Shown piece by piece: positions 12,825 to 50,842 of a stretch of 64,000 nucleotides of DNA. The translations under genes and the position numbers were made by a program. Source of the DNA: Eubacteriales bacterium (GTDB taxonomy: Bacteria; Bacillota; Clostridia; Oscillospirales; CAG-272); NCBI GenBank assembly GCA_045659905.1, contig JAZRCT010000040.1, positions 2,003 to 66,002 of the forward strand, written 5' to 3'. Every line of letters starts with the position of its first letter. Positions within the stretch are counted from its first letter, which is position 1. The notes beneath the pieces were generated by a model. The model ran no database searches, had not been told where the DNA came from, and saw only the letters and a list, made by a program, of their open reading frames with translations.

Positions 12825-12885
12825 CGGTTATGCCTAAATGCGAAAGCCTCTTGGGGCCCGAAAGCATTTTTGGGTGTATTTTTTA

Positions 12886-13000
12886 TTGCCACGTGGCAAT
12901 ATCACTCTTTGCGTGAGCAAAGAATATCACTGTCACCTAAGCGACAATATCACCCTCGCCGTGGTGAGGATATCACTGCCACCAAAGGTGGCTATATCCC
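12886..13000. repeat. hairpin-linker array A: 5 units of [5-7 bp-stem hairpin] + AATATCACT-like linker
   Basis: Units: TTGCCAcgTGGCAA-tATCACT; CTTTGCgtgaGCAAAG-AATATCACT; GTCACctaaGCGAC-AATATCACC; CCTCGCCgtGGTGAGG-ATATCACT; GCCACCaaaGGTGGC-TATATCCC. The array starts at the TAG stop of the 12992-13699 gene. Confidence 0.8.
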
Positions 13001-13699
13001 AATAAGGTGAGAATAGTGCGAAAACTCGCCGCCGACAAGCTCTTTCCCGTCGAAATACACGGTAGTAACCGAAGCGTTGTAAGGGAAGTCCACCTCCTGC
13101 GTCACACGCTCGGGGGCAACGCCGATAAGCCTTGCGTAAAAGGCTCTGATAACTGCTGCGTGAGCGGTAATCAGCACGCACTCGCCGATATGTTTTTTTG
13201 CTATCGAAAGCAGCGCATTGTGAAATCTCTCGGCTGCGGCGCTTACAGGCTCTCCATCGGGGGGTGTGAAAATGCCGAAATTCTGCTTCCAGCCTACGGT
13301 AAATTCCTCGCCGTATATCCTCTCTATATCCTCGATTTTGGAATTTTCCCACTTTCCGATATAGATTTCCCGAAGCTCACGCATCGGCACGATTTCTATA
13401 CCACGGTACTCCGCATTCGGACGGGCGGTATCATAGGCTCTTATCAAATCGCTTGAATATATAGCCGAAATCGGCTCGCCCTTGAGGAAATCCGCCGTCG
13501 CCTGCGCCTGGACGTGTCCTCTTTCGGAAAGTCCTAAGTCGGTATGACCGAGAAAGGCGTGCTCTGCATTGGCAATGCTTTCTCCGTGACGCACCACGAG
13601 CAGTCGAGTGCTATATCTTTCGTCTACGAAAAGCGGTGTCATATCACGCTGAATACCGCTCTCGCTATCCTTTATTTCTTCGGTAATTATCTCTTTCAT
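12992..13699 (-). CDS. histidine phosphatase family protein (phosphoglycerate-mutase-like)
   Basis: 235-aa ORF with the LLVVRHGESIANAEHAFLGHTDLGLSERG (RHG catalytic) motif; GGAG before the ATG. Confidence 0.85.
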   Translation of the reverse strand: MKEIITEEIKDSESGIQRDMTPLFVDERYSTRLLVVRHGESIANAEHAFLGHTDLGLSERGHVQAQATADFLKGEPISAIYSSDLIRAYDTARPNAEYRGIEIVPMRELREIYIGKWENSKIEDIERIYGEEFTVGWKQNFGIFTPPDGEPVSAAAERFHNALLSIAKKHIGECVLITAHAAVIRAFYARLIGVAPERVTQEVDFPYNASVTTVYFDGKELVGGEFSHYSHLIGI

Positions 13700-14119
13700 A
13701 AAGCTCCATTCTGATTGCCGATATAATAGGCATCTTATAAGCAGTCGTTGTATTTTTCGGGAATTGAGCCGCCCCGCCTCGGCATAAATGCGGCTAAAAA
13801 GGATAAGTCAATCCTCAAAGCGGTGCTGCCGACACGCACTTTCAAAAAAGCTTCTCAAAGTCGAACGGCGGCAAAAATTCGTAACTTTTCGTAATTTCAC
13901 GAGTGCATATCCTTGTGAATTTTTATTCACCGCCAATAAGGACACTTTTTCGAAAAATCTCCCGTCAAATAAAAGCGTGTTTTGCAAGTTCAAAGCACAA
14001 GAGCGGTAGCCGTGCCCCTTGCCGAATCAAAAGCAAAATCCCAAAGCTCCACCTCGCTTTCGGTAAGGGTCTCCACAAGCGCCGACTTGTACCAACGAAT
14101 GACGAGCAAGCGCCCCAAA

Positions 14120-14376
14120 GAATCCGCCCGATAGTTCGAGATAGCAAATCCGTAACCAAAAAAGGATAAATCCACCCGATTCAACTCCAAATCCGTCGGC
14201 TTTGTCTCAAAATCCGTCCACTTTAATAATAAATCCGTCCCGTTCAGACGAAAATCCACCCAATTTAATGGCAAATACACCCGCTTTAGTGAAAGTACGC
14301 CAGCCTTAGCTAAAAGTACGCACGCTTTAGCAATAAATACGCAGTCTGATAAGAAAAATCCCGCAATAAAGCACGG
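14120..14376. repeat. 21-bp tandem array I (~12 degenerate units, consensus AAATCC(R)(Y)CC-N11)
   Basis: Unit starts at 14146, 14168, 14189, 14210, 14231, 14252, 14273, 14292, 14313, 14335 and 14356 (spacings 22,21,21,21,21,21,19,21,22,21). Confidence 0.8.
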
Positions 14377-15010
14377 ACAACCCCACAATAAACTACAAAT
14401 ATTTAAATCAAAAGCAACAACACGGATATTATACCACCAAACCGAAGCAATGTCAATAAACGCAAAGCAGCGCCGGCGTCAGCGTCTGTGTCAGAAGTTC
14501 CGCACCAAAAATAAGGCGCAATTCAAAGCGGTCATCGCCGCATCTCGCAAGAGGAAAGGTCGGGGCGAGACGAAGCAAAATCAATTCGGAATCCAAAGCA
14601 TAAATCAACAGCCAAATCAAATAAAAAGGCTAAGTAATCCACCACGCAAAATAGAGCATTTTTTCTTTCCGTTTTTCTAAAATCAGCGCCATAAAATTCT
14701 GAATTTTCCGCATATCACAACCTCAATTATACAAAACTTTTTACCGCATATTTTCGTAATATTTTGGAATTTTTCGCAAAAATCAGAAAAATTCTTCAAA
14801 AAACGCTCAAAAAAACAAGGAGCAGCTAAAACCGTGACAATTTTTACCATATTTAACCATATTTTCCCATTTTCGTAGCAAAATGTATATCAGAGCCAAA
14901 AAATCCGCCCACCCCGAAGCTTGGCGCATGCACGGTCAAAATCTAAGCTGCCACAGCGCCTGCGACATTTTTTTGCACTGCTCCGTAGGTCTTTTCAGCG
15001 CTCTGTTGAA

Positions 15011-15181
15011 TTTTTTAAGAGTTTTATTGGCTTTTCGAGTGATAAATCAGCTTTTTAGCATTTTTTCGTTTCCTGAGGCGTTTTTTCGGCTTTTTGTTCG
15101 TTTTTTCATTAAAATAAAGCTTTTTTGCTGTATTTTCTCGCCGTAGTGTGGCGTTTTCGCCCATATTTTTTCTATTTTGTT
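15011..15181. repeat. helically phased T-tracts (T4-T6 every ~10-11 bp); predicted intrinsically curved DNA
   Basis: T-tract starts at 15011, 15022, 15032, 15052, 15061, 15069, 15081, 15091, 15101, 15121, 15133, 15154, 15166 and 15175. Confidence 0.7.
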
Positions 15182-15364
15182 TGAAAAATGCGTTCTCACG
15201 ATACAAATATCGTCTCAAGGCTATCTCCAAGGCAATTTACGGTCGCAAAAAGCCGCTTCAAAGCCGCAAAGAGCCCCTTAATTGTCAAAAACGCCGCTAC
15301 CCGAACTTTTATATCAATCAAGAATCTCCTGCCGATGCCAAGCGGTTTTTTAGCGTATCCTTAT

Positions 15365-15482
15365 AAAAAATTGCAAAATCACCTCAAAAAGCGCCTGTTT
15401 TTTCCTTGTAAAGCAAAAAATCTTTAAAAAATCCCCTAAAATTCGCAAAAAAATCACCCAAAATCCGCAAAATTGCGCCAAA
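15365..15482. repeat. helically phased A-tracts (A3-A7 every ~10-11 bp) ~90 bp upstream of parS-1
   Basis: A-tract starts at 15365, 15375, 15386, 15415, 15426, 15438, 15447, 15460, 15469 and 15480. Confidence 0.7.
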
Positions 15483-15570
15483 TCGGGTGCTAAATCAGCC
15501 GAGCCTTAGGCGCTTAAGCCTTAATTGCATATTCAAGGGAAATTCAAAGGGCAGACTGTTTATCAGGCAA

Positions 15571-15586
15571 TGTTTCACGTGAAACA
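15571..15586. promoter_or_regulatory. parS: parS site 1 (TGTTTCACGTGAAACA), ParB/Spo0J binding site
   Basis: Perfect 16-bp palindrome matching the Firmicute parS consensus tGTTNCACGTGAAACa. It extends to the 20-bp palindrome AATGTTTCACGTGAAACATT. Confidence 0.9.
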
Positions 15587-15793
15587 TTAAAATCCAGGCA
15601 AAAACAGCGAAAAAATATATTTCCCCGCCAAATCCAGGTTGTTTCAAGTGAATTGTCCCCTTATTTACCTTAAAACCGAATTGAGCGAGATTTTGCCGCA
15701 AAAATATGGGGGATTCGTGAGCTTACGGCTAAAAAGGGAACTCAAAAGCTTTTACGGCAAGAATGTAGCAGAATTCAATTGATAAAATCCAAT

Positions 15794-15809
15794 TGTTTCA
15801 CGTGAAACA
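15794..15809. promoter_or_regulatory. parS: parS site 2 (TGTTTCACGTGAAACA)
   Basis: Identical 16-mer 223 bp from site 1, flanked by imperfectly symmetric AAATC(C)AAT arms. A degenerate relative (TGTTTCAAGTGAATTG, 4 mismatches) lies at 15640-15655. Confidence 0.9.
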
Positions 15810-15973
15810 TTGATTTCCCCATCACGATTCGCCCGGAAACAAGAAAAGCCACAAAGCATAAATAAAAAATCGCCAAAAACGCAAAATTTCACAAGCTTCA
15901 CCCAAAATCACCTCAAAGATTACTCCAAAACCGCTTCGAAACACCTATAAAATGCTATAAACCCCAAGCTTAT

Positions 15974-16105
15974 ACTCGGATTGTAACACAGATTGCAACT
16001 CAGATTAAAACTCATATCAAAGCTCGTATTAAAACTCATATTAAAGTCAGTATTAGAACTCCGATTAAAGCTTCAACAAAGACTGCTTCAATTCCGTCCA
16101 ATTCA
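15974..16105. repeat. 12-bp tandem array (~10 degenerate units, consensus ACTCRKATTAAA)
   Basis: actcggattgta/acacagattgca/actcagattaaa/actcatatcaaa/gctcgtattaaa/actcatattaaa/gtcagtattaga/actccgattaaa/... read directly. Confidence 0.8.
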
Positions 16106-16420
16106 GCAAAAACGCCGAAATTTGTACAAAAACCAGTTAAAATACGCCTTGCAGTAAAAATTATCGCATTAAATTGCAAAAAATCGTAGCGTTTAACCGC
16201 AATTTCCGCAAAACGTCTCAGCTCACCGCTCGCAATTTCTCGGAAGTCAAGCCCAAGCCCGCTAAAACTCAGACCAAGGGTTTGCAGCACAGCAAAAGAA
16301 CACAGCCCTGCCGCATACGAACTCAATCACAAACGCCAACTCGAGAAAAATCGCACTCAAAGCTCAAAATCCAACCCATCATAACAATTTCGATATAACC
16401 AAAGTCAGAGTCGTTTTGCT

Positions 16421-16660
16421 AAAAAGCTCAATTCAGAAACGTTTTAGCAAAAAATCTTGATTCAAAGGCGTTTCGGCAAAAAGCTCAATTCAGAGGCACT
16501 TCAACGTGGCAAAAGATTAACGAAAGGGCATTTTGGTTTAAAAATTTCGCTTCAACGGCAATTTCGCTTCGAAAACCTATTCAGAAGAAGGATACTGCTT
16601 AAAAACTTGTCAAAAAATCATTTTTCCAGCAAAAGCCCTCAGTATAACCGGAATTTCACC
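16421..16660. repeat. ~30-bp tandem array (8 degenerate units, each opening with A4-A6)
   Basis: Unit starts at 16421, 16449, 16478, 16511, 16540, 16572, 16601 and 16631, e.g. AAAAAGCTCAATTCAGAAACGTTTTAGC / AAAAAGCTCAATTCAGAGGCACTTCAACGTGGC. Confidence 0.75.
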
Positions 16661-16693
16661 GTCGGCTCGCATTTCTTCGTGCCGTTCTTTGTG

Positions 16694-16860
16694 CTTAGGG
16701 TAGTTTTCTTGCTGCTTAAGCTAGGATTATGCGCTTAAGGTGGGGTCCTCGACGCTTAAGCCGGCTTTCTTGGCGCTTAAGACGGGTTTCTCGGCGCTTA
16801 AGGCAGGGTTATCGGTGATTAAGCAGCTTTCCGAAGGGCGCTTCGCCTTTTAATTGTTTG
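16694..16860. repeat. 21-bp tandem array II (8 units built on GCGCTTAAG)
   Basis: CTTAAG-like cores at 16694, 16715, 16734, 16755, 16776, 16797, 16818 and 16841 (spacings 21,19,21,21,21,21,23). Confidence 0.8.
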
Positions 16861-17065
16861 GCAGCCGTTTCCGCCTCATTCCGTCATAAAATCCCCGACA
16901 GACAACTTATTTTGACGCATTTCGACATAAATTTGGTATTAGTCTGCGCTCTCTTTTAGTTTTCCATTTTTTACCATAAGTTATCAAAAATATAAAAATT
17001 CCAAGCTATGACACGCAAAAGTAGGTCTATTTCTGGATTTTTTGAAAAAAACGTCGATTTACCGA

Positions 17066-17094
17066 TTGACTTTTTCCTTTTATTACTATATAAT
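17066..17094 (+). promoter_or_regulatory. sigma-A-type promoter of parA-parB (TTGACT-17-TATAAT)
   Basis: -35 TTGACT at 17066-17071, a 17-nt spacer, and -10 TATAAT at 17089-17094, ~110 nt upstream of the parA ATG. Confidence 0.7.
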
Positions 17095-17201
17095 CATTAT
17101 ATAACATATATATTAATCATTTAATAATGCATAAGTGTGGTTTTTGCACGATATTTCATTTGCATAGCTATCACTTACAAAAGGAGTATATAACAAAGCT
17201 T

Positions 17202-19051: not shown

Positions 19052-19870
19052 ATGCTCAAAGAATTTTACCACAAATATATCGAACTTAATCTTAAGGATT
19101 ACCCAAATATAGGACTTGACCTTGAGATAAACAAGCTTCTTTTCTTCGTCTTTCTCGCCCTTATTGCGGCATCGGTTTTCGCAAGCTATATTCAGGCAAG
19201 CATTGCCCTTATGGTAAAGAAGCTGCTGAGAACCTCCTCCTTCAATGAGGAAAGCTCAAAGACGCTTGCCGACCTCGGACTTGATAAGCACAAGACGCTG
19301 AAATTTGCTCTTACGAGAGCGACAGGCTCGGCAGCTCTTATTATAAGAGAGGTCGGCAAGCGTACACCGACCTACGAGGAGTATATGGATATCGAGCGCC
19401 GTGAAAAAGAACAGAAGAAAGAGAAGAAAAAGCAAAAGCGTGCTAACCGCCCCTCCTTCTTGTCCTCGCTGAAAAAGCTCGACAGCATAAATAGTCAGCC
19501 AGCGTCAAAAGAGAGTAATTCAATAAGCGTCGCACCCGAAGCTATCACGAAAGAAAGCACCAACGTCGCAACCGCACCCGAGAAAATCGCTGAGGCTTCA
19601 ATCACTCCTGAGGGAAGCGCCGACACCGCTTGCGCAAAGGAAGCCGTATCCGCAAAAGAGCTTCTTCGCAGAGCCGCACCCGATTTTGATACGGCAAAAT
19701 TTTACATTCCAAGCGATATGGAGGAGCGTGCGCTCAGATATTACAACACCAAGCAAGGCTCGGTTGTAAAGACCGTGCTTTCCTGTCTCGGGCTTCTCGC
19801 CTTTTATATCGCCCTCGTCTTTTTGATGCCGACGGCGCTTTCGGCGCTAAGCTCGCTTCTCGGGGGTTAA
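19052..19870 (+). CDS. hypothetical membrane protein with a Lys/Glu-rich low-complexity linker
   Basis: 272-aa ORF with AAGGAG before the ATG, hydrophobic segments near both termini, and a KEQKKEKKKQKR stretch. No family recognised. Confidence 0.6.
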   Translation: MLKEFYHKYIELNLKDYPNIGLDLEINKLLFFVFLALIAASVFASYIQASIALMVKKLLRTSSFNEESSKTLADLGLDKHKTLKFALTRATGSAALIIREVGKRTPTYEEYMDIERREKEQKKEKKKQKRANRPSFLSSLKKLDSINSQPASKESNSISVAPEAITKESTNVATAPEKIAEASITPEGSADTACAKEAVSAKELLRRAAPDFDTAKFYIPSDMEERALRYYNTKQGSVVKTVLSCLGLLAFYIALVFLMPTALSALSSLLGG

Positions 19871-19872
19871 TT

Positions 19873-20613
19873 ATGGCTTCAAGCAAAAAAGTATTTATAT
19901 ATATGCTGACCGCCGAGGAAGGCTCAATTACCGACGCCGAGCTTGATATGCTCTCCGCAGCTCTGCCAGAGGCGCTTTCTGCAAGGTGCGAGGCGGCAAA
20001 CGCCAAGGAGCTAAGGCACGACCGAATTCTCGCCTACACCGCTCTTATGTACGCGCTCTACGAGGCAGGTCACGACCCTGACAATATCGGATTTTCATTC
20101 TCGGAGCTTGGAAAGCCAAGTATACCCAATTCGGACTACAACGTATCAATGTCGCACGCAGGCGGAATCGGCATTGCGGCAATTTCAGGTGACCTTGACC
20201 TCGGAATTGATATCGAGCTTCTTGACGAAAAAACCGCTACCACTCTCCAGCGTGTCTGCAAGCGCTTCGTACCCGATTTTTATCCCGAGCCAAGCTCTCT
20301 TGCCGACTGCATTTTTGACGACGAGCCGAGCTTCACCCCAGACCTTGAAGTGAAGCTTTGCGAGCTTATACCGAAAAGGCAGGAAGGAAGGCTCTATCTT
20401 GAAAAATCAACCGCACGCTGCTGTACGGGGCTTGAATCCTCAAAGGCTGAAAAATGGACCTGCGCCGAGGCGCTCCTCAAGCTTGACGGCAGAGGCTTCA
20501 CCGCCCTCCCACAGCTTGCTGCGATAAGAGAAAGCGCCCACCTTTACTCAACGGCAGTAAAGCCTCACGGCAAAAGCTCCCTCCTCGCCGTTTCTCTCGC
20601 AACGAAACAATAA
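19873..20613 (+). CDS. 4'-phosphopantetheinyl transferase superfamily protein (Sfp-like)
   Basis: SMSHAGG...LGIDIE and WTCAEALLKLDG (W/F-x-x-K/A-E-A-x-x-K) motifs. The start is coupled to the upstream stop (TAATTATG). Confidence 0.7.
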   Translation: MASSKKVFIYMLTAEEGSITDAELDMLSAALPEALSARCEAANAKELRHDRILAYTALMYALYEAGHDPDNIGFSFSELGKPSIPNSDYNVSMSHAGGIGIAAISGDLDLGIDIELLDEKTATTLQRVCKRFVPDFYPEPSSLADCIFDDEPSFTPDLEVKLCELIPKRQEGRLYLEKSTARCCTGLESSKAEKWTCAEALLKLDGRGFTALPQLAAIRESAHLYSTAVKPHGKSSLLAVSLATKQ

Positions 20614-20680
20614 AAATTTTAAAAAAAGGGGCTGTCACATAAGTATTTAATAAAGGGACTTTGCAGCCAAAGTCCTCCTT

Positions 20681-20714
20681 ACACCCCGAAAGCATTTTGG
20701 GGTGTGTTTTTTTA
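20681..20714 (+). terminator. intrinsic terminator ACACCCC-11nt-GGGGTGT + GTTTTTTTA
   Basis: 7-bp GC-rich stem with a T7 run, 68 nt after the stop of the 19873-20613 gene. Confidence 0.8.
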
Positions 20715-20881
20715 TCCAATGCGTCAAGCTTTGGACTTCATCCAAGCGTAAGTCTTGGACTTAATCCATCGAAGATGGACTTCACCCGAGCGTAAGCGAG
20801 GATATCACTGCCACATTAGTGGCAATATCACTCTTTGCGGGAGCAAAGAATATCACTCCTCGCCGTGGCGAGGAATTTCCC
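20715..20881. repeat. hairpin-linker array B: 3 units [TCCAxx hairpin]+CTTMA followed by 4 units [hairpin]+AATATCACT
   Basis: TCCAA-11-TTGGA-CTTCA; TCCAAGcgtaagtCTTGGA-CTTAA; TCCATCgaaGATGGA-CTTCA; (degenerate)-ATATCACT; GCCACattaGTGGC-AATATCACT; CTTTGCgggaGCAAAG-AATATCACT; CCTCGCCgtGGCGAGG-AATTTCCC. Confidence 0.8.
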
Positions 20882-20957
20882 ATTTCGCCCTGAAAGTATT
20901 TTAAGCAGTTATTCGCTTTTATTTACATATGAGTAAATAATTGTTTACTCCTCAAGA

Positions 20958-21000
20958 CAAAAAAGCAAGAGATTTGACAAAGTCTGTCTCTTGCTTTTTG
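20958..21000. terminator. bidirectional intrinsic terminator (AAGCAAGAGA-14nt-TCTCTTGCTT flanked by A-run and T-run)
   Basis: 10-bp perfect stem. On the minus strand it is followed by TTTTTTG, directly downstream of the rnj stop at 21018. Confidence 0.8.
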
Positions 21001-21017
21001 TCTATTTTTTACTTTCT

Positions 21018-23003
21018 TCAGGAATCAAGAATAATCGATATAATCATAGGCTTACGCTTGGTTTCACGATAGATATACTTAGCTAAAGAATCACGGATTT
21101 GATTCTTAATTTCGTTAAAATCACGCACACGCCTATCGAGCGCCGTATTTATTGCAAGCTCGCACACGCGCTTGGCGGCTGCCATAAGGTCGCCGGATTC
21201 CTTTACGTACACGAAGCCTCGGGATACGATATCGGGTCCCGATACAAGATATCCGCCGCGCATATCTATGCCTGCGCAGACTATGACAAGTCCGTCCTCC
21301 GAAAGCAGCTTTCTGTCACGAAGCACAACGCTTCCTATATCACCGATTCCCGAGCCGTCTATCATAACCTTTCCAGCCGACACACTCTCTCCGAACGATG
21401 CTCTCTGCCTTTCAAGCACAAGCACACGGCCAAGCTCGGATATGAAAATATTAGACGAGGGGATTCCCATAAATTCGGCTATTTGCCGATTGGCGTAAAG
21501 GTGCCTTGCCTCGCCGTGTATCGGCATATAATATTTCGGCTTAAGCAGAGCTATCAGAAGCTTGATTTCCTCGCTGCAGGCGTGTCCCGACACGTGGACG
21601 TCCTCCACCGAATCGTTTACCACCTTTACCCCGTTTTTAACGAGAGCGTTTATAATCTTACCGACGAGCTTTTCGTTGCCCGGGATTGCCGACGAGGAAA
21701 GGACTACGGTATCGTTAGTGGAAAGCTTCACCTTTTCGTGCTCCGAAAAGGCTATTCTGTAAAGCGCCGACATAGGCTCGCCCTGGCTTCCCGTGGTAAT
21801 AAGCGTGATTTCCTCGGGGCGGAAGCGCTTTATTTCGGAAATATCTATAAGCGTATCGTCGGGAATTTCCATATACCCAAGCTCGGCGGCAGCGCCTATA
21901 ATATTTACCATACTCCTGCCAAGCACGGCTACACGCCTATGATATTTTGCGCTTGCGTTAATTATCTGCTGTACTCTATGCACGTTTGACGAGAAGGTGG
22001 CTATTATGAGTCTGTTGTTCTCGTTTTGCATAAAAATTCTATCAAGAGAATTTCCGACCGTGCGCTCAGACGGGGTGTATCCCGCTCTTTCCGCATTGGT
22101 TGATTCGCAAAGCAAGAGGTCAACTCCGCTCTTTCCTATCTCGCCTATTCTGGCAAGGTCCATAATTTTACCGTCTATCGGCGATACGTCGAGCTTAAAA
22201 TCGCCCGAATGAAATACCGTTCCTGCGGGTGTCTTTATATAAAGTGCGCAGGCGTCTGCAATAGAATGGTTTACGTGTATAAACTCAACCTTAAATACGC
22301 CGACGCTTATCACGTCGCCTGCCTCAACCGTATAGAGCCTCGGTGTATTCGGCGGCTTATGCTCATCAAGCTTGCCCTCGATTATTCCAAGTGACAGACG
22401 TGTGCCGTAAATCGGGGTATCAATAGAGGAAAGCAGATAGGGAATTCCACCTATATGGTCCTCGTGACCGTGAGTTATGAAAACACCTCTTAGCTTGTGG
22501 GCGTTGTTTATTACGTAGGAAAAATCGGGGATAACCAAGTCAACACCCGGCATATCCTCGTCAGGAAAGGCAAGTCCGGTATCGACGATAATCATATCCT
22601 CGCCGTATTCAAGCACCGTCATATTCTTGCCGATTTCGCCAAGTCCGCCAAGCGGAATTATTTTAAGCTTACCCGCTCTCTTGTGCGGCTGCTTTTCGGA
22701 GCTTTTCGGGTTCTTTTCTTTAATTTTCATAAAATCCCCGTTCGTTTTTACGTTTTTTTCCGCTTTGCCACCCGCCCTATTATGAGCGCTTATTCCGCTT
22801 TTTCTTTGCTGACTCTTTTTTGCGACGGTCTTGTGCTTTTTTTCTTCTGGTGTGCTCCTTTTCGATTCAAGCCTTGGCTTTGACGCCCCACGCACCAAAT
22901 CCTTGCGGGCGCCACGCTCTAAAGCTGTACCCTTCGTCTTTTTTTCTTGGGGTATTGTGTTTTTTTCTTTGATTTTTGTGTTTTTGTTTTTTTCTTTAAT
23001 CAT
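21018..23003 (-). CDS. rnj: ribonuclease J (metallo-beta-lactamase/beta-CASP) with a ~100-aa Lys-rich N-terminal extension if the first ATG is used
   Basis: KLKIIPLGGLGEIGKNMTVLEY and HGHEDHIGG motifs. An alternative start at MKIKEKNPK (about 22730) has GGGGA upstream. Confidence 0.9.
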   Translation of the reverse strand: MIKEKNKNTKIKEKNTIPQEKKTKGTALERGARKDLVRGASKPRLESKRSTPEEKKHKTVAKKSQQRKSGISAHNRAGGKAEKNVKTNGDFMKIKEKNPKSSEKQPHKRAGKLKIIPLGGLGEIGKNMTVLEYGEDMIIVDTGLAFPDEDMPGVDLVIPDFSYVINNAHKLRGVFITHGHEDHIGGIPYLLSSIDTPIYGTRLSLGIIEGKLDEHKPPNTPRLYTVEAGDVISVGVFKVEFIHVNHSIADACALYIKTPAGTVFHSGDFKLDVSPIDGKIMDLARIGEIGKSGVDLLLCESTNAERAGYTPSERTVGNSLDRIFMQNENNRLIIATFSSNVHRVQQIINASAKYHRRVAVLGRSMVNIIGAAAELGYMEIPDDTLIDISEIKRFRPEEITLITTGSQGEPMSALYRIAFSEHEKVKLSTNDTVVLSSSAIPGNEKLVGKIINALVKNGVKVVNDSVEDVHVSGHACSEEIKLLIALLKPKYYMPIHGEARHLYANRQIAEFMGIPSSNIFISELGRVLVLERQRASFGESVSAGKVMIDGSGIGDIGSVVLRDRKLLSEDGLVIVCAGIDMRGGYLVSGPDIVSRGFVYVKESGDLMAAAKRVCELAINTALDRRVRDFNEIKNQIRDSLAKYIYRETKRKPMIISIILDS

Positions 23004-37905: not shown

Positions 37906-37906
37906 A

Positions 37907-38107
37907 GCGTGATACGCTTAGCAGAGTATCACGCTAACTCTATTCGCCTCCGGCGAGTTATATTGCTACGCAGTGATATTCGGATTATGACGAGTGATAT
38001 TTGCTCCGCAAGCTTAGGGCGAATAGAATATAACTGAAGCCACAAGGCTTCAATATCACTGTCGCTGAGCGACAATATAACTCTTTGCGTTAGCAAAGAA
38101 TATCACT
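37907..38107. repeat. hairpin-linker array C: linker motif present in both orientations (GTGATA x3 then TATCAC/TATAAC x5)
   Basis: GCGTGATAC-10-GTATCACGC hairpin (37907-37934); AGTGATATT at 37972 and 37993; 9-bp inverted repeat CTATTCGCC/GGCGAATAG (37940/38018); then AATATAACT-GAAGCCacaaGGCTTC-AATATCACT-GTCGCtgaGCGAC-AATATAACT-CTTTGCgttaGCAAAG-AATATCACT. Confidence 0.8.
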
Positions 38108-38117
38108 TTATACTAAC

Positions 38118-38191: not shown

Positions 38192-38314
38192 GCTTATAAT
38201 AAGCGTTTAGGCTTAGCCCGAGTGCATTGACTTGTCGAAAGACTTTAACGCACTGCGCTTAATGTTCAAATTCTCTGATTTTGGCGTAATGGCAAAGGCG
38301 CACGGATTTTTTAA

Positions 38315-50653: not shown

Positions 50654-50702
50654 GCAAGGGTAAACCGACGGAAAAAAGAGCAGACTCGGCGTGATGTCCT
50701 TA

Positions 50703-50842
50703 ACGGACAAAGCACGCGGTTAAATCCGTCTTCGACGGGTGAAATCCACCTATGGTGGATGAAATCGCTTTCGCAATGAAATCCTGCTTCGCAGGGTTAA
50801 GATAGACAAGCTTGATTTCATCGTTGCCTGCAACGATTTCAT
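50703..50842. repeat. hairpin-linker array D with ATGAAAT linker (4 forward units, then 2 ATTTCAT inverted)
   Basis: CCGTCttcGACGG-GTGAAAT; CCACCtatGGTGG-ATGAAAT; CGCTTTCGCA-ATGAAAT; CCTGCttcGCAGG-GTTAAGAT; ...ATTTCAT-CGTTGCctGCAACG-ATTTCAT. It lies between the ilvE terminator and the leuA promoter. Confidence 0.75.

Follow-up and report, generated by a model that had tools for sequence, protein, structure and literature searches.

A seven-hairpin intergenic array from a gut Clostridia genome, a probable variant copy of the Gut-1 element

The intergenic array studied here (array B; positions 20715-20881 of the window, by which we mean the whole 64,000-nucleotide stretch of DNA analysed) very probably belongs to the Gut-1 family (Rfam RF01706), of which it is a somewhat atypical further copy: it has seven units and two linker variants, and it scores under the Rfam cut-off. 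We hold with moderate confidence the fuller statement that array B is a Gut-1 copy and that such elements act single-stranded at gene boundaries, most likely as RNA. Gut-1 was described in 2010 by Weinberg et al. from 43 human-gut metagenome examples, was rated certain RNA but not cis-regulatory, and was then without known host or function; their alignment already includes examples with GUGAUAU linkers and ATATCAC arrays downstream (PMC2864571). No follow-up work on Gut-1 after 2010 was found in the literature searched.

Array B and the Gut-1 model

Reading the sequence together with a hairpin list, we find that 20715-20881 consists of seven short hairpins joined by short constant linkers (Table 1): units 1-3 have TCCA..TGGA stems with CTTCA or CTTAA linkers, and units 4-7 carry (A)ATATCACT. 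The units are direct, not alternating, and the repeat period is 23-25 nt in total. Hairpin 4 needs tandem G.A/A.G for its pairing, has a GUAA (GNRA-type) loop, and is well formed on the plus strand only. All seven units of the original prediction are present at the positions it gave, and the modular hairpin-plus-linker array that it described is real, as judged by hairpin density, folding z-scores and a covariance-model match. Array B is the window's densest run of small perfect hairpins: its coverage, 0.67 of 150 nt, exceeds that of all 40 Markov simulations, modestly (mean 0.49, maximum 0.63). Folding z-scores are −4.3 (plus strand) and −5.7 (minus strand) as RNA, and −5.7 (plus) and −5.0 (minus) as DNA, and for either kind of fold 0 of 200 dinucleotide shuffles were as good. 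The better RNA fold is that of the minus strand, where the minimum-energy structure has stems of 9-10 bp including AUU/AGU closures.

An Rfam scan at relaxed threshold matched Gut-1 to 20883-20797 on the minus strand with 40.3 bits, under the gathering cut-off of 50 bits (E = 1.3e-6 on 421 nt, 2e-4 window-wide). The alignment spans model positions 1-77 of 77, with three hairpins and four linkers (GGGAAAU, then GUGAUAU three times) in register. In the Rfam model the flanking AUU/AGU pair (A-U, U.G, U-A), leaving three unpaired bases. Reverse-complementing the Gut-1 linker AGUGAUAUU gives the linker AATATCACT, and the ATATCACT part of array B reads as the reverse complement of the Gut-1 RNA motif. 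In Gut-1, each module joins a short, GC-rich hairpin to a linker of 7 nt; on one strand the linker is GUGAAAU, GUGAUAU or RUGAAGU, and on the opposite strand ATTTCAC, ATATCAC or ACTTCAT. Array B resembles RF01706 in its consecutive short hairpins with a constant 7-mer between them, in stems closed by A-U and U.G, in its gut Clostridia-type sequence, and in lying, as Gut-1 does, after stop codons or terminators; it differs in having seven hairpins instead of three, linkers GUGAUAU and RUGAAGU instead of GUGAAAU, a sub-threshold score, and one hairpin (hairpin 4) that is well formed on the opposite strand only.

A second covariance model, R1, was trained on 49 right arms taken from other genomes, no window sequence being included. 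It matches array B at 20778-20858 (plus strand; 61.1 bits, E about 1.4e-9) and pairs hairpins 4, 5 and 6 with HP1, HP2 and HP3 of the family right arm; family HP1, to which hairpin 4 is aligned, often has the same tandem GA and GNRA loop, and HP3 is CTTTGC..GCAAAG in many species.

The linkers of the TCCA units read ACTTCAT, ACTTAAT and ACTTCAC on the plus strand, two to four positions away from ATATCAC and one to two from the ATTTCAT of array D; on the minus strand they read AUGAAGU, AUUAAGU and GUGAAGU, of which AUGAAGU is one base off canonical GUGAAAU. The CTTCAC ahead of hairpin 4 occupies the place of the first ATATCAC of the family right arm. To judge by these sequences, the CTTCA and CTTAA linkers are variants of the Gut-1 linker; the mid-array switch of linker family reported in the original prediction is a real change, but its two "families" are close variants of one 7-mer. 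The TGGAYTTMATCC junction of the TCCA units occurs, among 130 loci, in the window and in locus L001 only. As a whole, array B looks like a right-arm-type array on the plus strand, made of three variant units, a canonical three-hairpin arm and one extra unit; having neither the GCGAATA junction nor an opposed arm, it is a one-directional array, as are about 45 other loci.

Table 1. Positions of the Gut-1 arrays, the parts of arrays B and C, and neighbouring features in the window
Feature	Positions	Strand	Remarks
Array A	12884-12999	minus	five hairpins, AATATCACT linkers; Rfam Gut-1 49.3 bits at 12978-12894 (minus); R1 75.6 bits (plus)
parA, parB	17.1-18.9 kb	plus	
Two genes without Pfam match	19052-20613	plus	the second, 19873-20613, lies directly upstream of array B
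Intrinsic terminator of gene 19873-20613	20680-20714	plus	terminator scan; adjoins array B
Hairpin 1, TCCAA..TTGGA, TCCAAtgcgtcaagcTTTGGA	20715-20735		imperfect; then linker CTTCA, 20736-20740
Hairpin 2, TCCAAGcgtaagtCTTGGA	20741-20759		then linker CTTAA, 20760-20764
Hairpin 3, TCCATCgaaGATGGA	20765-20779		then linker CTTCA, 20780-20784
Hairpin 4, (C)CCGAGCgtaaGCGAGG, CCGAGC-GUAA-GCGAGG	20786-20801	plus	then linker ATATCACT, 20802-20809
Hairpin 5, GCCACattaGTGGC, GCCAC type	20810-20823		then linker AATATCACT
Hairpin 6, CTTTGCgggaGCAAAG, CTTTGC type	20833-20848		then linker AATATCACT
Hairpin 7, CCTCGCCgtGGCGAGG, CCTCGCC type	20858-20873		end linker AATTTCCC, 20874-20881
Bidirectional terminator-like hairpin after the RNase J gene	20955-21003		about 75 nt from array B
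RNase J gene	21018-23003	minus	RNase J domains
dnaA, dnaN, recF, gyrB, gyrA	24.5-33.3 kb	minus	
Array C	37906-38108	plus	full composite directly past the stop of a Na/Pi cotransporter gene
Array C, P0 hairpin	37906-37935		
Array C, left arm	37938-38017		GTKATAT linkers; then GCGAATAGA
Array C, right arm	38027-38108	plus	four ATATMAC linkers, three hairpins; R1 83.1 bits
Array D	50689-50842	plus	P0 hairpin, then four hairpins linked by GTGAAAT or ATGAAAT, and a short right arm

Sister arrays and the orthologous loci

Four Gut-1 loci lie in the window, at 12.9, 20.8, 38.0 and 50.7 kb. Array A, on the minus strand, starts at the stop codon of a histidine phosphatase gene (12992-13699). Array C, which was aligned with 49 other composites, is the sole full composite among the window's arrays, and its left side matches Rfam Gut-1 with 36.2 bits at 37935-38005 (plus strand). 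Array D, whose short opposed right arm is GATTTCAT, a hairpin and ATTTCAT, is the window's only copy above the cut-off of 50 (50.5 bits at 50717-50787, plus strand); it has a minus-strand gene on either side, and a bidirectional terminator marks its end.

The kinship of array B with array A that had been noted before is borne out by shared hairpin types (GCCAC, CTTTGC, CCTCGCC). The hairpins of array A are, in order, GCCAC, CTTTGC, GTCAC, CCTCGCC and GCCACC; the last three of array B are GCCAC, CTTTGC and CCTCGCC, which can be read in the order of A units 1, 2 and 4 with GTCAC missing. As GCCAC-type hairpins stand at both ends of array A, a circularly permuted alignment with array B is also possible. 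The right-arm order of array C (GAAGCC, GTCGC, CTTTGC) differs from those of A and B. Divergence of paralogous copies with loss or gain of units would explain the unit orders of all three. The loop differences (atta, ggga, gt) that had been described between the two arrays are real, but the "different order" of their common units is doubtful, since a collinear reading also fits; with one unit missing, the A/B order is compatible with collinearity, as paralogue divergence would leave it, and the argument against duplication that had been drawn from a shuffled order therefore fails. Similar hairpins with a T-run stand ahead (on the plus strand) of array A, at 12850-12887 (CCCGAAAGCATTTTTGGGTGTATTTTTT), and of array B, at 20681-20714 (CCCCGAAAGCATTTTGGGGTGTGTTTTTTT), and the duplicated unit behind A and B may include the terminator-like hairpin.

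Gene annotation identifies the window as the origin-proximal region of a spore-forming Clostridia genome. Of the two terminators predicted to flank array B, the one on the plus strand at 20680-20714 is confirmed; the other, a terminator-like hairpin at 20960-20999, is formed by a perfect 13-bp inverted repeat between an A-run and a T-run. A search for promoter-like sites at array B found none on either strand. The 3.4 kb or so upstream of parA (13700-17126) hold no convincing gene, have a low GC content and abundant short tandem repeats with periods of 11-28, and contain two perfect parS sites, TGTTTCACGTGAAACA, at 15571-15586 and 15794-15809. A DnaA-box cluster was found nowhere in the window, and a link of the arrays to an origin of replication or to DnaA boxes was rejected (8 DnaA-box matches found, 9.1 expected).

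The protein encoded directly upstream of array B has only seven homologues in a large protein database. Exact-protein look-ups (window ORF, P0001) returned no contig, a metagenome scan with a conserved 24-mer from the 3' end of the gene returned nothing, and one with a 19-mer at the unit 1/2 junction of array B returned unrelated coding matches only. Among the relatives, L001 (90% identity in the upstream protein) keeps the terminator and three TCCA units, with different loops and an 18-nt insertion, and its contig then ends; L002 and L125 (53% and 64%) have two hairpins and keep only the GTCGC hairpin, a CTTAATCCA remnant and CCCTCGCCgtGGCGAGGG; L127/128 (58%) and L129/130 (46%) have no array, with the hypothetical gene and the RNase J gene conserved and convergent as in the window. 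Array A is likewise missing from L002, where the histidine phosphatase is 85% identical. Scanning the loci orthologous to arrays A and B in relatives with model R1 gave no match in any. Since relatives with conserved flanking genes lack the arrays, Gut-1 arrays are gained or lost over short evolutionary distances, and array B is a lineage-specific copy of a dispersed repeat. The original prediction would have counted an accident of one lineage against itself: more distant relatives with both flanking genes do lack the array, yet many other genomic copies exist.

Another conserved motif, made of two hairpins (GGGTATGGGCnnnGCCC...GCATTTGTAATACAAATGCGAAACTGGCGATAAA), is present at 38197-38290 of the window and elsewhere, at least 15 loci in all, among them L102, L110, L054, L073, L017, L085, L006, L041, L119 and L127; it often lies past the promoter that comes right after a Gut-1 composite and just before the ribosome-binding site. 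L127/128 has a copy at the site of the window's array B. The motif had no Rfam match at E<=1.

Distribution and pairing of the Gut-1 family

The expectation that other genomic copies of the array exist is well supported: a pattern scan (three ATATCAC at hairpin spacing, one genome per species) found at least 120 loci, against a rough chance estimate of about 22. Of the pattern matches listed, nearly all are in gut MAGs of Oscillospiraceae, Acutalibacteraceae, Clostridia or Eubacteriales; a few are in phage contigs. Several of the MAGs have copies on more than one contig, some contigs carry two, and about 24 copies, by hand count, lie within roughly 300 nt of a contig end. We conclude that Gut-1 is a modular element, located between genes, that occurs in many copies in gut Clostridia of Oscillospirales type and also in some phage contigs.

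The junction that marks composites, GCGAATA plus linker, matched 67 copies, and fifty were aligned. Their order is as follows: a P0 hairpin (often terminator-like); AGTTnTATTCGCC..GGCGA; a left arm of three GTKNTAT linkers and four hairpins, which is the part modelled by Rfam; GGCGAATAnA; and a right arm of four ATATCAC linkers and three hairpins. The usual element is thus two-armed, whereas the Rfam Gut-1 model covers the left arm only.

The family is under selection for intrastrand pairing: in the composite alignment 97.3% of cells are paired, compared with 80.5% in shuffles (0 of 500 as high) and 32-48% in slid controls, and 279 cells are compensatory, compared with 71.5 in shuffles (0 of 500 as many). 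A long-range pair, TnTATTCGC/GCGAATAn'A, covaries at one position (AU 18, UA 17, CG 14, none broken), with three pair states that follow three subfamilies and so represent few independent events. Pairing between the linkers of the two arms was considered and rejected: the left linkers vary (GTTATAT, GTGGTAT, GTTCTAT) and the right ones stay ATATCAC, and the locus L122, which puts GTGAAGT units beside ATATCAC units in one element, also counts against it. L122 (2343-2976, from a Clostridia MAG) has five hairpins joined by GTGAAGT and, after them, an ATATCAC array of 22 linkers in which a three-hairpin block is repeated about seven times, so that arrays can evidently grow by tandem amplification.

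The genes upstream of 45 composites are unrelated to one another (45 singletons), and pairwise similarity between copies mostly stops at about −90/+90 nt from the centre. Similar sequence downstream of composites might be read as a sign of orthologous loci; this was rejected, as the window genes flanking the arrays gave no tblastn matches in those loci and the upstream genes are unrelated. At five loci (L012, L023, L085, L086, L088) the composite is followed by a promoter and a small gene for a four-helix-bundle-like protein (MSNSILRDKAKDFAK...), and the gene upstream differs by locus (GroEL in L023).

About 20 of the viral-contig pattern matches listed are true arrays; most are unrelated tandem repeats. 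The phage contig L319 (IMG/VR, 4487 nt) is a structural-gene fragment (portal, scaffold, major capsid, connector) with Gut-1-type arms in every intergenic region: left arms stand directly past the stops of the portal, scaffold and connector genes, and, at the portal and capsid genes, right arms directly precede the ribosome-binding sites. Between the arms lies a further repeated module of roughly 130-150 nt (GGTACACGCTnAnGCGTGATTGG...GGGAGATCAATGATCTCCCCTACA).

Likely role and comparison with known systems

On balance the family evidence points to a strand-specific role for single-stranded nucleic acid at the boundaries of genes, with RNA the most likely form, because of the placement after stop codons, the closing U.G pairs and the positions of the arms in the phage contig. 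Where a left neighbour could be called for a composite (52 cases), it is co-oriented in 40, and its end usually lies about 10 nt ahead of the element. The closing U.G of the left arm is invariant in two hairpins and stands at U.G 34 to U-A 15 in a third; on the forward strand of the right arm G.U outnumbers A.C (17 vs 8) and G.A outnumbers C.T (27 vs 4), and the left-arm G.U and A.C counts (4 vs 5) are uninformative. Across the family there are 11 tandem GA/AG pairs in the plus (hairpin 4) orientation and zero mirror C/T tandems. The original prediction argued for a DNA-level function of array B solely from its placement after a terminator; the co-orientation across the family, the U.G closures and the arms of L319 favour RNA instead. 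Arrays A and B, read on the plus strand, do lie downstream of terminator-like hairpins, as do many family copies, and forward transcription would require read-through; one subfamily sits after tRNA genes and a terminator, and one-directional arrays are oriented without bias with respect to their neighbours.

By analogy with known extragenic elements, we tentatively propose that Gut-1 elements act as RNA borne on the ends of neighbouring transcripts. A full element would place its left arm just past a stop codon or terminator and its right arm just ahead of the next promoter, ribosome-binding site or terminator; the hairpin stacks would mark and protect transcript ends in the manner of REP/BIME and BOX elements, the constant linkers would be read by a putative recognition factor, and the elements would spread as a dispersed repeat. 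Such a protective or boundary-marking role is, by this analogy, the most likely one for Gut-1.

Besides these observations, the loops point to DNA. Those on the ATATCAC strand are mostly C-GNA-G or C-GNRA-G (GAA 44, GCA 20, GTA 17, GTAA 13, GCAA 12), with a closing C-G pair in 82% and GAA far ahead of TTC (44 vs 2), and C-GNA-G is a classic, unusually stable mini-hairpin of DNA, not RNA. Moreover, the two arms of a composite bear C-GNA-G-type loops on opposite strands, which is hard to explain by one transcript. The boldest form of our proposal, which we think rather unlikely, takes Gut-1 to be, instead of a simple small RNA, a two-armed, modular gene-boundary element that Oscillospirales share with their phages and that spreads as a dispersed repeat. 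One arm would stand after stop codons and the other before promoters or ribosome-binding sites, and the element, with its own putative recognition protein, would be a counterpart of REP/BIME in Firmicutes; from the opposite-strand loops it would follow that selection also acts on a stage of single-stranded DNA (mobilisation or replication).

The same loops would be expected if Gut-1 were selfish REP- or MITE-like mobile DNA whose hairpins form in single-stranded DNA and whose ATATCAC is read by a transposase acting in trans (e.g. Y1/HUH), RNA effects being by-products. We regard this as an unlikely alternative, in spite of the many near-identical copies per genome, their enrichment at contig ends, their presence or absence between close relatives and their occurrence in phage contigs: no transposase was found beside any copy, no target-site duplication was recognised in the flanks, and the orientation is tied to the upstream gene. 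Two copies in L048 do share an identical right half with different flanks, the homology between copies ends at about −90/+90 around the centre, and the element ends can be read as inverted repeats (AGTKATATT ... AATATCACT); however, the hairpins differ between units and yet keep pairing by many compensatory changes, which argues for long-term structural selection and not for recent copying.

A stand-alone small RNA, as the Rfam class implies, whose repeated single-stranded linkers hold copies of an RNA-binding protein or pair with targets, is improbable to our minds. Most composites begin within about 10 nt of a stop codon and so leave no room for a promoter, none was found at array B, and copy and unit numbers vary widely (3 to 22 linkers); to our knowledge no partner protein of Gut-1 has been described. 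What would suit a small RNA is the four evenly spaced, nearly invariant 7-mers between stable hairpins, the position of array D between two opposite-strand genes with its end at a terminator, and the rating as certain, non-cis-regulatory RNA by Weinberg et al. (PMC2864571).

An iteron-like duplex-DNA array of protein-binding sites tied to the chromosome origin and partition region, the DNA-level reading taken earlier, might be suggested by a 7-9 bp motif repeated directly every 23-25 bp, by the window's dnaA, dnaN, gyrBA, parAB and two perfect parS sites and by the place of array B between two terminators. It is very improbable and was rejected, since its defining features fail: the spacer stems vary freely but keep pairing, for which a duplex-binding protein would have no need; members of the family are scattered over many genomes and phages, next to genes that are unrelated, instead of being bound to origins; and arrays A and B are missing from relatives whose origin-region genes are the same.

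As for array B on its own, the outcome is modest, namely one more variant copy that is lacking in relatives with conserved flanks. For the family, which has been in Rfam since 2010, the window and the other loci gathered here show that the Rfam model represents half of the usual two-armed gene-boundary element, and that the family can now be placed in Oscillospiraceae/Acutalibacteraceae-type gut bacteria and some of their phages, with many copies per genome. This is relevant to the annotation and assembly of gut MAGs, as contigs often break at Gut-1 repeats.

Array B resembles a CRISPR array in that a constant short sequence alternates regularly with variable sequence. That identity was rejected: the constant part is only 7-9 nt, as against repeats of 23-50 nt, with a period of 23-25 nt in total; the variable part is a self-complementary hairpin of 13-19 nt and not a spacer of 26-72 nt; the neighbours are parAB, RNase J and gyrA; and no cas gene is among the annotated genes around the arrays (about 4-40 kb of the window). 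An array of a type III toxin-antitoxin system (ToxI-like), in which identical tandem repeats stand beside a gene for a toxin endoribonuclease, was also rejected: here the sequence changes from unit to unit, neither of the two genes upstream matches Pfam, and RNase J lies on the other side. The closest parallels are REP/BIME of enterobacteria and BOX of the pneumococcus, which are multi-copy modular extragenic hairpin elements, often found just downstream of genes. Gut-1 shares no sequence similarity with them, and BIMEs alternate copies of one palindrome, whereas the hairpins of Gut-1 differ per unit, in direct orientation and with a constant linker; like REP/BIME and BOX, Gut-1 has a variable number of modules, and its copies are present in some genomes and absent from their relatives.
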